This document shows positions 4,870 through 44,662 of a stretch of 64,000 nucleotides of DNA, in pieces. The stretch's first letter is position 1. Every line of letters begins with the position of its first letter. The translations under genes were made by a program, and so were the position numbers. This stretch comes from Acidimicrobiia bacterium (GTDB taxonomy: Bacteria > Actinomycetota > Acidimicrobiia > Spongiisociales > UBA11373). The notes below the pieces were generated by a model. That model did not search any database, was not told the origin of the DNA, and worked only from the letters and a program-made list of their open reading frames with translations. The stretch is from the NCBI GenBank assembly GCA_030584185.1, contig CP129495.1:1469469-1533468 (forward strand). The letters are read 5' to 3'.

Positions 4870-5697
4870 GTGCGGTTCGATGGCGCCGGGCGCCTAGCTT
4901 GGTGTGTCATGGCAGCAAAGATCCGCTCCGGGAACTCGAGGGGATTCGATCCCACCCTCCCTTCGAACCGTTTCGTGCTCGGTGGCTCGGTGGTGGCCGG
5001 GGCGGCCGGAGGGTTCGCCGCCCTCGTCGCCGGGGAGCGTCTCGCCGAGGCGGTCGGGTGGGGTGTGGCCTCGGGAGGCGGGTTCTTCATCGCCTGGGCA
5101 CTCGCCCGCGAGCTGCACCCGGACCGGCCTGGGGTGGCCGCGGTGGCCGCCCTGCTCGGTCCCGTCTTTCTGCTGTTGGATCGCCCCAAGCTTCTGTCCT
5201 CCGGGGTCGTGCTGCTGGTCGCTCGCCTCGTCGCCGGCACAACCGGACGGCGGTTCCAATGGGTGGATGCCCTGGTCCTGCTGGTCCTGGCCGGGCTCTC
5301 GATCGGCACCCCCGTCGGGACGGCGGTCCTGGCGGTTGCAGCAGCGGCGACGGGTGCCACCTGGTTCGGGCCGAGTCGAGGAGGCCCGGTGGCGACCACG
5401 ACGATCGCCCTTGGGCTTCTTGCGGCCTGGTCGGCAGCGGCCGTGGAGGGCGGCCTTGTCTGGGGTCTCGAGGCGATCGATGGGGGAGTTGCGCTCTTCG
5501 GGCTGGCGGCCATCGCCGGGCCGGTGAAGGTCGTCACCGGCACCGACCGCGAGGGAGGCGTCATCCACCCCGGCCGGGTCCGGGCGGCGCGGGTGTTCGC
5601 GGCCGGGACCGTCGCTGCATCCGCGGCGCTCGGCGGCGTCGGTGTGCTGGGGCCGGTGGCCGCCGCCCTGATCGGCACCGCCCTCCGGCCTCGCTGA
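4870..5697 (+). CDS. Hypothetical polytopic membrane protein (Ala/Gly/Leu-rich)
   Basis: It is a 275-aa ORF with at least six hydrophobic stretches and no recognisable motif. The start could be the internal MAAKIR at 4909. Confidence 0.45.
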   Translation: MRFDGAGRLAWCVMAAKIRSGNSRGFDPTLPSNRFVLGGSVVAGAAGGFAALVAGERLAEAVGWGVASGGGFFIAWALARELHPDRPGVAAVAALLGPVFLLLDRPKLLSSGVVLLVARLVAGTTGRRFQWVDALVLLVLAGLSIGTPVGTAVLAVAAAATGATWFGPSRGGPVATTTIALGLLAAWSAAAVEGGLVWGLEAIDGGVALFGLAAIAGPVKVVTGTDREGGVIHPGRVRAARVFAAGTVAASAALGGVGVLGPVAAALIGTALRPR

Positions 5698-42622: not shown

Positions 42623-43621
42623 ATGCCGAGGGGGAACGCCTTGAGGTCGACCAGAATGCCAGGCAGCACGAGGATGGGGGTAGCGGTGGCCACCGCCATC
42701 GCCTTGCTCGCCATCCCTACCCCTGCCATGGCAGGGTCCAGCAACCTGGAGACCTCCCCCGATCCTGCCTGGGATTCCCCCCCGGCACCCACCCTCGCCG
42801 GGTTCACGCTTCCGATGGACTGGTCGCAGCGCACGTCTCCGTGTCCGCGAACGGCCGATGCCCCGCACCTCGAACAGCGCTTGGCATCGTTCGCCCGACC
42901 TGCCCTCTGTCCGGGTGACGTGTCCGAGGCGGTGGTCCACCTGCAGCGGCTGCTGACCGAGAAGAAGCTGTACCGCCAGCCGATCACCGGGGTGTACGAC
43001 ACGGCGACGCGCTACGCCGTCGCCGCCTTCCACAAAGTGATCGGACCCGCTCATCCCAACCCGGCGACGGCCGTGGCGGAGTGGCGGGCGGACCCGCCTC
43101 CCGAGGATTGGACATCCGAGGACTGGCTGCTGCTGGAGGCCTTCGATCCCCGACCGCCCAAGTTCCGTCGCAACCAGCCCGACCGGGTGGAGAGCGACAT
43201 CGGGCATCAGGTCCTGTACCTGATCCACGACGACGAGGTGGTGGCGATAATGCCGATCAGCACCGGCGCCGGCCGGGGAACGCGCGGGTGCACGTCCTCG
43301 GATACCTGCAGCGTGTCGGTCACTCCCCGCACCAGCAGGATGGTCGGTGGGAGCACCTTCTTCGGTGAGCACGGGTACTCCGCAGGGTGGTCGCCTCGTC
43401 CGGGCGACTGGTCCATCTACAAGGCGATCTTCTACCGCGGCCAGTACGGGGAGTGGAACTACGGGCTGCACGGGTACCGCCACGTCCCGCACTATCCGGC
43501 CTCCCACGGGTGCACCCGCCTCACCGTCTGGGACATGGACTTCCTGCGTCCCACCACGGCCCGCGGTGCTGCGGACTCGAGGGTATGGGTGGGGATGACC
43601 ATCCACGTCTGGGACGAGTAG
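42623..43621 (+). CDS. L,D-transpeptidase (YkuD domain) with an N-terminal peptidoglycan-binding-like domain
   Basis: It has a signal peptide, a PG_binding_1-like segment (VVHLQRLLTEKKLYRQPITGVYDTATRYAVAAFHKV), and a YkuD catalytic region (HGYRHVPHYPASHGCTRL). The start could be 42656 or 42674. Confidence 0.8.
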   Translation: MPRGNALRSTRMPGSTRMGVAVATAIALLAIPTPAMAGSSNLETSPDPAWDSPPAPTLAGFTLPMDWSQRTSPCPRTADAPHLEQRLASFARPALCPGDVSEAVVHLQRLLTEKKLYRQPITGVYDTATRYAVAAFHKVIGPAHPNPATAVAEWRADPPPEDWTSEDWLLLEAFDPRPPKFRRNQPDRVESDIGHQVLYLIHDDEVVAIMPISTGAGRGTRGCTSSDTCSVSVTPRTSRMVGGSTFFGEHGYSAGWSPRPGDWSIYKAIFYRGQYGEWNYGLHGYRHVPHYPASHGCTRLTVWDMDFLRPTTARGAADSRVWVGMTIHVWDE

Positions 43622-43922
43622 ACACATCGTCAGGCGGGATCATCTTTCCTCCCTCTGCAGGGGGGAGTACGGCGAAGCCGGGAGGTGGGCAGACCATGGG
43701 AGACCTGTGTCGCGTGTTGCCCCTCCGGCCCTTCGGGCCAGCTCCCCGGGGGAGGGAACTTCGCCAGACCCTCGTCGCGCCTTTGCCTCCTCCGGCCCTT
43801 CGGGCCACCTCCCCGGGGAGGGAACGTCGCCGTCGGCCCTCCTGGCTTCGGACCACTGCCCGCAAGACACCAGGCCCGAAAGCATGGGTGGGGATGACCA
43901 TCCACTTCTGGGACGAGTAGAC
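43585..43922. repeat. Repeat-rich ~260-bp segment flanked by 39-bp direct repeats (a duplication of the ldt 3' end), containing two ~67-bp tandem units with GGCCC-TTC-GGGCC hairpins
   Basis: 43585-43623 and 43884-43922 are identical at 38 of 39 positions (ATGGGTGGGGATGACCATCCAC[G/T]TCTGGGACGAGTAGAC). The interior has the units ...CCTCCGGCCCTTCGGGCCA[G/C]CTCCCCGGGG(G)AGGGAAC[T/G]TCGCC at ~43719 and ~43786, plus a CTCCC-TCTGCAG-GGGAG palindrome at ~43650. Confidence 0.6.
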
Positions 43923-43945
43923 GCCTCTCACCTAGCCTGGCGGCG

Positions 43946-44662
43946 ATGGATCTGCTCGCCGTCATCCGAACGGCCTCCGGGCGCCTCGCCGGCGCTGCCG
44001 CATCGAGGCCGGGTGCCTCGGTTCCCCGGTACCCGGGCTGGACCCTGCTCGACCTGCTGATCCACACCGGAAGTGCCCACCGGCGGGCGACCAAGGTGGT
44101 CGCCACGACGGCACAGGAGAAGGTCGAGCGGGAGTTCCCGCCTGACGAGGTGCCCGAGGTGGTGCTCCCCTGGTTCACCGAGGGGGTGGCATCGATGGTG
44201 GAGGCCCTCGAGCGAGCGGATCCGATCAGCGAGGTGTGGGGGTTCGGACCGCGTCCCACCGTCGCCTCCTGGATCCTGCGAATGGCTCTGGAAACCGAGG
44301 TCCATCGGTGGGATGCCGAGTGCGCCATGGGTTCTTCGAGCCCGATTCCCGCCTGGTTGGCTGCCGCTGGAATCGAGGAACTGCTCGCCCTCTGGGGAGG
44401 AGTGATGCCGCTCGAGCAGGCACCCTCGCTGGAGTTGGTCCTCACCGACCTGGGCGAGTCCTGGACGCTGAGCGCGGGGGAGGTAGGTGCACGCCTCGCC
44501 CCCGGCAGCCCGAGCGAACCGGGCGACGCCGTGGAGGGCGACGCCTCCGAGATCTACCTGTGGCTGATGGGCCGCCGCGACCTGGCCGGGCTGGTGTGCC
44601 ACGGCTCGGGGGCCGTGGTCTGGGACGCGGCTTTCAGGGCGCTGCCCGACGCCCGTCGCTAG
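43946..44662 (+). CDS. Mycothiol-dependent maleylpyruvate isomerase N-terminal-domain (MDMPI_N / DinB-fold) family protein
   Basis: It has the pattern typical of TIGR03083-like actinobacterial proteins (PGWTLLDLLIHTGSAHRRAT; WDAE motif). It is 238 aa. Confidence 0.65.
   Translation: MDLLAVIRTASGRLAGAAASRPGASVPRYPGWTLLDLLIHTGSAHRRATKVVATTAQEKVEREFPPDEVPEVVLPWFTEGVASMVEALERADPISEVWGFGPRPTVASWILRMALETEVHRWDAECAMGSSSPIPAWLAAAGIEELLALWGGVMPLEQAPSLELVLTDLGESWTLSAGEVGARLAPGSPSEPGDAVEGDASEIYLWLMGRRDLAGLVCHGSGAVVWDAAFRALPDARR

Follow-up and report, generated by a model that had tools for sequence, protein, structure and literature searches.

The window analyzed here, a 64-kb stretch of DNA from a metagenome-assembled genome (MAG) of Acidimicrobiia with a G+C content of ~69%, carries a gene for an L,D-transpeptidase, ldt, the 3' end of which is present twice, with the second copy lying upstream of the next gene, a member of the MDMPI/DinB-like family (hereinafter, the MDMPI gene). 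The 299 bp that set the two copies apart read as a lineage-specific insertion between ldt and the MDMPI gene, because a relative with ~89% identity has an empty site at this position. The best explanation, to which we give slightly better than even chances on the basis of sequence comparison, is that a cluster of hairpin-forming repeats, akin to the repetitive extragenic palindromes (REPs) and bacterial interspersed mosaic elements (BIMEs) of other bacteria, was inserted by template switching or break repair and left the duplication of the gene end behind. The recognizable content of the insert is two canonical repeat units, arranged head to tail on the + strand, with degenerate unit-like pieces, including an inverted one, on either side. 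The locus comprises the following features:

42656..43621, + strand: ldt, L,D-transpeptidase (YkuD and PG_binding_1 domains), 321-aa form; assigned by Pfam and by identity to an NCBI protein
43585..43623, + strand: 39-nt direct repeat, left copy, which forms the true ldt end; stop codon TAG at 43619-43621, followed by two more bases
43624..43883, no strand: interior of the insertion, absent from the relative (contigs L138 and L137)
43884..43922, + strand: right copy of the 39-nt repeat, an apparent non-coding relic; reads HFWDE*, out of the ldt frame, and runs into the putatively ancestral 25-nt spacer
43946..44662, + strand: MDMPI/DinB-like family gene (mycothiol-dependent maleylpyruvate isomerase); Pfam MDMPI_N, E = 7e-18; identical to the NCBI-named P0111

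The 39-mer ATGGGTGGGGATGACCATCCACGTCTGGGACGAGTAGAC at 43585-43623 recurs at 43884-43922, at a distance of 299 nt and with a single mismatch (G to T at 43906), as an earlier note on this DNA had described; two matches to it were obtained in 0 of 100 dinucleotide shuffles, and the 64 kb contain no third copy. The left copy can be identified as the functional gene end, because the 60 closest homologues of ldt all end in ...VGMxIHVWD[AE]*, the ending common to the whole family, with which the C terminus of the window gene (...VWVGMTIHVWDE*) agrees. Given that 299 is not a multiple of 3, the right copy is out of frame with ldt. The suggestion that the second copy might be the end of a longer ldt allele is therefore not borne out, and a frameshifted or longer protein terminating there is ruled out by the open reading frames (ORFs) together with the endings of the homologues. 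The 321-aa product is 100% identical to the NCBI protein WKZ81988.1 (P0104), encoded on a 2.2-Mb contig, and matches the YkuD (E = 7.5e-9) and PG_binding_1 (E = 8.5e-5) domains, with the longest ORF of the gene beginning at 42623. The end of ldt is unchanged among nine strain variants, and an additional T to C change was found in the right copy in the Logan contig L009.

The relative was found by a search with the protein encoded downstream, of which it has an 88%-identical orthologue. In its contig L138, ldt ends in ...WVGMTIHVWDE* (...DFLRPTTARNAPDSKVWVGMTIHVWDE*) with the stop codon TGA, followed by 25 nt and the ATG of the MDMPI gene, with nothing in between; the contig L137, from a second sample, agrees with L138 at the empty site. 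This arrangement supports the earlier proposal that the segment had been inserted. The last 214 nt of ldt are identical between the relative and the window at 192 positions (89.7%) and the MDMPI genes at 633 of 717 positions (88%); the 120 nt past the relative's stop codon match the sequence past the right copy at 102 positions and that past the left copy at only 35. The comparison thus indicates that the ancestral arrangement was an ldt stop codon 25 nt from the MDMPI ATG, and that the left copy keeps ldt whole, with the right copy being a non-coding relic joined to the original spacer. The two-unit structure is not an assembly artefact, given that the insert is covered in full by three independent Logan contigs (L140-L142) with 100% identity to the window over 43501-43980.

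More distant homologues of ldt, at 65-70% identity, are followed by other genes, with no insert and no repeat units, and are too distant to help. In another distant relative (L139, 1451-5255), four genes lie between ldt and the MDMPI gene, so that the tight ldt-MDMPI junction would itself be derived; these genes appear to have been lost in the lineage of the window and the 89% relative, which would place the insert at an older deletion junction. The four genes encode a 118-aa ORF, a ferritin, an acetyltransferase, and a 145-aa ORF. Separately, the 28-kb contig L137 begins (positions 1-31) within the last 30 nt of ldt, which could be due to chance or hint at heterogeneity at that site in the population.

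Within the interior and adjoining the proposed right junction, we delineated two repeat units and two unit-like segments:

43648..43689, - strand: degenerate inverted unit-like segment ("unit 0"), CCTCCC-TCTGCA-GGGGGGAG-TA-CGGC GAA GCCG-GGAGGTGGG; holds a palindrome; weak assignment
43718..43756, + strand: unit 1, double-hairpin repeat, CCCCTCC-GGCCC TTC GGGCC-AGCTCCCC-GGGGGAGGG; covariance model R1, 47.8 bits, E = 5e-6
43785..43823, + strand: unit 2, double-hairpin repeat, CTCCTCC-GGCCC TTC GGGCC-ACCTCCCC-GGGGAGGG; R1, 42.4 bits, E = 4e-5
43835..43851, + strand: unit-like 5' half ("unit 3"; 43835-43870 in a wider delimitation), CCCTCCTGGCTTCGG; abuts the proposed right junction at ACCAC

Exact copies of the interior core CTCCGGCCCTTCGGGCCASCTCCCCGGGG lie at 43723 and 43790, 67 nt apart, and nowhere else in the 64 kb, and a repeat finder returned a 41-nt repeat at 85% identity. 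Tandem Repeats Finder reported no array at the insert, because only the cores of ~40-50 nt are alike and not the whole 67-nt periods. The repeated units described previously are confirmed in the form of two related units of ~38 nt that lie 67 nt apart, both carrying the GGCCC-TTC-GGGCC hairpin. The CTCCC-TCTGCAG-GGGAG palindrome reported alongside them is found at 43649-43667, in the inverted unit-like segment, which starts 27 nt past the ldt stop codon and contains a 9-bp hairpin in the fold; the unit-like 5' half at 43835-43851 is identical to the reverse complement of this segment at 13 of 14 positions. Neither segment was detected by R1 at E ≤ 10, and both were rejected as true units and are considered unit-like only.

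The interior holds no credible ORF, in agreement with the earlier assessment. A 74-aa ORF (43696-43920) was called in Logan contigs (MGDLCRVLPLRPFG...WVGMTIHFWDE, preceded by GGGAGGTGG); it covers the repeat units and terminates with the duplicated Ldt C terminus. Its G+C content at third and second codon positions is 0.73 and 0.66, respectively, compared with 0.84-0.87 and 0.48-0.56 in real genes of this genome, which refutes it as a real protein, and its frame has no Pfam match. A six-frame translation of the interior scored nothing against 5.8 billion proteins.

The two units belong to a family of double-hairpin repeats that extends well beyond this genome. The exact unit core had no match in 185,579 species-representative genomes, among which the source genome is not included; a JGI metagenome contains it two times, in both cases between genes of an organism that differs from that of the window in G+C content and tetranucleotide signature. 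One of the JGI contigs also bears an inverted relative with the same flanks and a different, compensated hairpin, which suggested the general family pattern CCCTCCG-variable hairpin-CCACCTCCCCG-loop-GGGAGG (in its wider form, CCCTCCG-hairpin-CCA[C/G]CTCCCCG-short loop-GGGAGG). This pattern, with 0 matches expected by chance per 64 kb, occurs in the species-representative genomes at no fewer than 120 loci from many phyla; statements on loci below refer to the ~120 that were listed. A covariance model, R1, derived from 30 units that all come from other genomes, with the window sequences excluded, detected units 1 and 2 at the scores given above, with the next best match in the 64 kb at 16.7 bits (E = 0.5). 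The REP-like character attributed to the hairpins in the earlier note is thereby upheld, in the form of membership in a repeat family found in many other genomes.

Among the matches listed, the hosts include Beta-, Alpha- and Deltaproteobacteria, Rhodothermales and other Bacteroidota, and Gemmatimonadota, as well as Deinococcota (including Thermaceae), Synergistaceae, several families of Firmicutes, and other Acidimicrobiia. Several loci can occur in one genome, with at least 12 in the Proteobacteria MAG JAEWEW01, at least 8 in a Rhodothermales MAG, and at least 6 in Verticiella, again among the matches listed. Units from Rhodothermales, Alphaproteobacteria, Faecalibacterium, and an unrelated high-GC metagenome organism are 94-100% identical over 30-36 nt, and the 30-mer 43789-43818 of unit 2 is found unchanged in L015 and L016, which derive from another organism. 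A stem of 5 bp or more is formed by the first hairpin in 76 of 130 family matches, compared with 3 of 130 after shuffling; the stem sequence varies between genomes with pairing kept, 4 of 6 pairs changing on both sides in rows that had been preselected for pairing. In the second hairpin, a subfamily from Firmicutes has GCTCCCC/GGGGAGC in place of CCTCCCC/GGGGAGG.

In other genomes, units are found alone, in inverted pairs (L016, L049, L081 and L084), and in tandem arrays, at a median of ~35 nt past a stop codon, and between co-directional genes 33 are antisense and 8 sense, both statistics relying on crude gene calls; the two units of the window have the minority orientation. Units in nine other loci had no match in Rfam at E ≤ 0.1. 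The pattern was absent from 2.9 million viral contigs and had two weak matches in plasmids. A search of the literature yielded no name for the family, which is no proof that none exists. Elsewhere in the same nine loci, the only Rfam matches were Gut-1 and a tRNA.

Contigs from dozens of samples (L001, L007-L014) break exactly at unit 2, with the left and right parts overlapping by the 30-mer 43789-43818. Such breaks were considered as proof of multiple copies and rejected, given the spanning contigs in three samples and the presence of the 30-mer in an unrelated organism; they are better explained by units shared between community members, which would fragment metagenome assemblies at this locus.

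The nature of the interior bears on two kinds of mobile element. The earlier note had considered a miniature inverted-repeat transposable element (MITE), that is, a non-autonomous transposon inserted with a target-site duplication, and the insert is indeed small, non-coding and hairpin-rich, is flanked by a direct repeat, and has an empty counterpart in the relative. In these respects, and in that such elements can adjoin gene ends and alter transcripts, it is similar to Correia, ERIC, RUP and Nezha, which are likewise small structured non-coding insertions with empty sites in relatives. However, the termini of the insert, ACATCGTCAGG... and ...CCCGAAAGC, do not form an inverted repeat (the best such pair is internal, 24 nt long and 75% complementary), and the short duplication of fixed length and the full-length copies of the interior that characterize MITEs are missing: in a BLAST comparison of the interior with all fetched loci, only its positions 97-133 and 166-195, which are the two units, gave matches, and no further copy of the whole was present in the window or in the ~120 loci. 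Known transposases duplicate 2-15 bp of target, a range that a duplication of 39-73 nt exceeds. Taken together, these observations make a MITE very improbable, and this part of the earlier interpretation does not hold.

Alternatively, an integrative element, such as a prophage, an island or a cis-mobilizable element, could have used the 3' end of ldt as attB, the 39-mers then being attL and attR and the interior a remnant. Attachment-site duplications at gene 3' ends, as in e14 in icd and in tRNA-targeting islands, likewise involve a repeat of tens of bases including the gene end, with the upstream copy keeping the gene whole and the downstream copy forming a pseudo-end, and the ~40-nt repeat here covers the 3' end and stop codon of a conserved gene that remains intact; furthermore, the gene-like diverged stretch upstream of the right 39-mer (see below) could be an attP arm from another host. 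Unlike in those systems, no integrase, recombinase fragment, cargo or other element gene was found in or near the 260-bp interior, which consists of hairpin repeats of a chromosomal type. Neither the unit nor the codon pattern of the Ldt C terminus occurred in the 2.9 million viral contigs, and no third copy of the 39-mer is present in the 64 kb. An attachment scar is accordingly rated as quite improbable.

The similarity to ldt continues upstream of the right 39-mer, in one further feature:

43852..43883, + strand: upstream portion of the ldt-end duplication, diverged; ACCACtGCCCGC, similar to ldt 43553-43564 at 11/12 positions, followed by a scrambled 21-nt patch

At the offset of 299, ACCACtGCCCGC agrees with ACCACgGCCCGC of ldt (the TTAR codons) at 11 of 12 positions, and none of 63,187 other offsets in the window does as well. 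The block 43834-43863 is identical to ldt at 19 of 30 positions (p = 6e-5), including 11/12 for ACCACnGCCCGC, and the patch of 20-21 nt that separates the 11/12 block from the right 39-mer at 8 of 20 (p = 0.12); 5' of ACCAC (43834-43851), the identity is only 8/21, which taken alone is not above chance. The duplication is probably best placed at 43852-43924, comprising 73 nt and starting at ACCAC. Its 5' junction lies at a short match between a unit (..GGACCAC) and ldt (..CCCACCAC), and its 3' junction lies directly past the stop codon (..TAGAC).

Three-way comparison with the relative reveals a mosaic history. The left and right copies share the derived states GCC, ACC, stop codon TAG and the following AC, and in the patch the right copy holds states like those of the relative (AA., C.. 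and.A.), which the live gene has replaced (N to G, P to A, K to R). Synonymous divergence between the window and the relative is 0.34-0.42, which translates into ~17% neutral change per lineage; the observed changes amount to 1/39 in the right 39-mer and ~8/21 in the patch. For neutral DNA of that age, the right 39-mer seems too conserved and the patch rather too diverged, a mosaic that may have been caused either by short-tract conversion from the live copy or by promoter constraint on the 39-mer.

The same pattern is relevant to the possibility of allele replacement through homology-facilitated illegitimate recombination. Under this scenario, the right copy would be the original end (the last 73 nt) of the resident ldt, and the 3' part of ldt from a related donor, along with the repeat cluster following it there, would have recombined homologously in or upstream of ldt, with an illegitimate join at ACCAC. 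The contiguity of the right copy with the ancestral spacer is compatible with such an event, as is the distribution of the differences between the copies, which sit in the variable part of Ldt (GAADSRV and KTPGPKA) and are nearly absent from the conserved TTAR and WVGMTIHxWDE motifs, a clustering expected of two alleles diverging under coding constraint. The patch states AA., C.. and.A. (N/K, P and K), common to the right copy and the relative and not shared by the left copy, point in the same direction, and codon bias at third positions keeps the motif near-identical even at 69% gene identity, with L002 sharing ATCCACGTCTGGGACGAGT. The derived states GCC, ACC, TAG and AC present in both copies, however, fit a single lineage better; the 33 coding nucleotides of the 39-mer show no synonymous difference; and no donor with ldt and a cluster was found, the relatives at 65-70% identity having other genes and no units. 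On balance, allele replacement appears unlikely, although not as remote as the origins involving mobile elements.

A diversity-generating retroelement, with the right copy as template repeat and the ldt end as variable repeat, would also place a non-coding repeat of a gene 3' end a few hundred bases downstream, and 7 of the 12 differences in the patch, which is A-rich, fall at its A positions. Adenines are not involved in the other 5 differences or in any of the 11 that lie farther upstream, the nine strain variants do not differ at the ldt end, no reverse transcriptase is encoded among the neighbours, and YkuD is not known as a target fold of these elements. The probability of this origin is close to nil.

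Our preferred reading is the entry of a REP/BIME-like cluster by template switching or break repair. In this mechanism, during replication or break repair, the growing strand would leave the locus just past the stop codon (...TAGAC), copy ~230 nt from a repeat cluster elsewhere, and re-enter ldt 73 nt upstream of its exit, at the short match between the unit (..GGACCAC) and ldt (..CCCACCAC). A staggered cut of the transposase type would not be involved, and the duplication would be a by-product of the entry of the cluster. Subsequently, the last 39 nt of the relic would have been kept, either by conversion or as the -35/upstream region of a leaderless promoter, and the preceding 21 nt would have drifted. 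The anatomy is that of insertions arising through template switching or microhomology-mediated repair, in which tens of bases are duplicated around foreign sequence with matches of 2-5 nt at the junctions, and hairpins capable of stalling forks abound at the site. Templated insertions flanked by a duplication are produced in events of the fork stalling and template switching (FoSTeS) and microhomology-mediated break-induced replication (MMBIR) type, and as filler DNA in non-homologous end joining in actinobacteria. By contrast with the present case, template-switch insertions are documented mainly in eukaryotes and laboratory bacteria, and the likeness is one of anatomy only. As to the verdict on a recombination scar that regenerated the gene end, as formulated in the earlier note, the scar comes near to this mechanism, but the end has been duplicated, with a decaying downstream copy, rather than regenerated.

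The promoter alternative for the conservation of the relic involves a short motif upstream of the MDMPI gene:

43933..43938, + strand: TAGCCT, a TANNNT hexamer 7 nt 5' of the MDMPI ATG, read from the sequence

The ATG of the MDMPI gene is not preceded by a Shine-Dalgarno (SD) sequence, either in the window or in the relative (L138), and the relative has TAGCGT at the place of TAGCCT, likewise 7 nt before the ATG (window, 43933-43948; L138, 227-242). The lack of an SD sequence combined with TANNNT 7 nt before the ATG is the layout of actinobacterial leaderless genes. Thus, TAGCCT may be the -10 element of a leaderless MDMPI promoter, and the arrangement suggests a leaderless transcript with its -35 region inside the ldt end.

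Several observations weigh against the insertion of a cluster by template switching. The polarity of the event is unproven, given that recombination of the 39-nt repeats with each other could have removed the insert from the relative. The right copy is a mosaic (11/12, 8-9/21 and 38/39) that goes beyond simple decay and requires an additional assumption, conversion or constraint; a conversion tract of 39 nt is close to the lower limit for homologous recombination, and the promoter idea consists of one hexamer, which a scan of 43300-44200 for the sigma-70 consensus does not call. The proposed microhomologies (AC and ACCAC) are short and come from a single event, and neither the window nor the fetched loci yielded a donor for the ~230 inserted bases. 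The exact 30-mer of unit 2 is probably single-copy in the source genome, because spanning contigs exist in some samples, and the family may be rare there. Finally, among the ~120 loci, the sole other long flanking duplication is that of 25 nt in L081, so that long duplications are no regular property of the family.

Whatever its origin, the insert could have been kept for a role in RNA, as a stabilizer or attenuator in the 3' untranslated region of ldt, as an insulator between ldt and the MDMPI gene, or as a small RNA (sRNA). The unit hairpins are maintained with differing sequences across phyla, units elsewhere lie 15-35 nt after stop codons with a biased orientation (33 antisense versus 8 sense), and the inverted unit-like piece of the window begins 27 nt past the ldt stop codon; REPs of Escherichia coli reportedly stabilize upstream mRNA and, when near a stop codon, stall ribosomes (Newbury 1987; Liang, Rudd and Deutscher 2015). 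However, the segment 43300-44200 has no Rfam match at E ≤ 10 and, on either strand, no promoter-like and no U-tract terminator-like sites (0 terminators), folding is no better than that of shuffled sequences (insert, z = -0.41; units, z = -0.5 to +0.25), the canonical units have the minority orientation, and the relative does without the insert. These results disagree with the structured sRNA envisaged previously, and we regard selective retention for an RNA function as doubtful. Most likely, the insert is selfish or neutral, and the GC-rich hairpins in it would at most shield the 3' end of ldt and separate the transcription of the two genes.

Comparison with known repeats places the units closest to, yet apart from, REPs and BIMEs of enterobacteria and pseudomonads. 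As in those systems, the units are ~38 nt long, GC-rich, hairpin-forming and extragenic, lie mostly just past stop codons, stand alone or form inverted pairs and small tandem arrays, reach multiple copies in several genomes, carry no gene, and differ in presence between relatives. However, REPs are specific to a species or genus, whereas here the flanks, and sometimes 30-36 nt, are common to phyla with the first hairpin free to vary; each unit has two hairpins, the second formed from an SD-like sequence (GGGGAGG) and one like the tail of 16S rRNA (CCACCTCCCC); and only two canonical units are present in the 64 kb of this genome. Inverted doublets of units (L016, L049, L081 and L084), together with the inverted unit-like piece that faces the forward units in the window, recall REPINs (REP doublets forming hairpins), which are reportedly mobilized by REP-associated tyrosine transposases (RAYTs; Bertels and Rainey 2011; Nunvar 2010). 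Movement by RAYTs, of the IS200/IS605 type, leaves no target duplication and relies on recognition of a conserved hairpin preceded by a tetranucleotide, and here, unlike in REPINs, it is the hairpin that varies and the flanks that are constant. In the 8-kb flanks of the loci, no RAYT gene or other Y1 transposase was found, and all-against-all clustering of ORFs in these flanks recovered no recurrent transposase, its yield being limited to widespread families (ABC ATPases) and a weak signal for DUF559.

More speculatively, and with a low although appreciable probability, the units could represent an uncatalogued double-hairpin module present across bacteria, the invariant parts of which mimic the 3' tail of 16S rRNA (CCACCUCCCC) and an extended SD sequence (GGGGAGGUGG). 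The same tentative reading holds that the module is near-identical across phyla, with the first hairpin free as long as it is paired, and is embedded in larger, lineage-specific repeats that differ from each other, such as the 81- to 83-nt arrays giving an SD sequence and ATG in Betaproteobacteria and the alternating inverted arrays in gut Firmicutes. If so, the module would have a universal cellular machine as its partner, most obviously the ribosome (for instance, 30S subunits could be captured or recycled past stop codons), or else would be spread by one mobilizing activity with a very broad host range. It would then constitute a new class rather than ordinary species-specific REPs, with the gene-end duplication being a footprint of its spread. 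Were the module indeed undescribed, the questions would be what holds a 36-nt intergenic sequence constant across bacteria, and whether the parts resembling a ribosome-binding site act on translation or on mRNA ends.

At the locus itself, repeat DNA would have entered a 25-nt gap with neither gene harmed, at the price of a duplicated gene end, as documented by the empty site, and this provides a worked example of an insertion that probably did not involve a transposase in an uncultured actinobacterial lineage. For annotation, it carries the warning that gene callers produce the spurious 74-aa ORF here. The locus is of modest interest, and the more striking by-product is the cross-phylum module: the units tie this MAG to a sequence that is shared, almost letter for letter, with distant phyla and is absent from Rfam.

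The neighbourhood of the insert in the window consists of genes for an aldehyde dehydrogenase, Ldt, the MDMPI-family protein, ArgH and ArgG. Around the units of other genomes, ORFs for DUF559/Vsr-like endonucleases were present in 6 of the ~120 loci, adjacent to the units in L016, L022 and L050 and within 8 kb in L021, L088 and L104; in L016, the DUF559-type ORF at 5035-5403 is followed by units at 5410-5453 and 5574-5610. This proximity is more frequent than expected by chance for a gene with a few copies per genome and may reflect an association of a selfish gene with the repeat.

In a MAG of gut Firmicutes (L049), a Gut-1 RNA (RF01706, 77 bits) lies at 1514-1591, ~220 nt upstream of an inverted pair of units. 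Units occur in this contig at 1720-1880 and 6160-6400, with the intergenic DNA being dense with alternating units, which are embedded in a longer lineage-specific repeat (AAGCCACGGTnnAAC...unit...CTTAATGTAAGAGTTTG). In Betaproteobacteria (L020, 5382-5584; L059, 5987-6104; L068, L083, L085 and L096), the unit lies within a tandem period of 81-83 nt that also contains a second long hairpin. On the opposite strand of these arrays, every period retains GGAGGG-N6-8-ATG/GTG, and the last one directly adjoins the start of a real gene, such that the repeat appears to supply or copy a ribosome-binding site and start codon. In the Rhodothermales MAG contig L081, the inverted pair of units is flanked by the 25-nt direct repeat ATGACATAGGA[G/C]TTACGCAGTTGGC, at 1331-1355 and 1480-1504, the right copy forming one half of a perfect palindrome.

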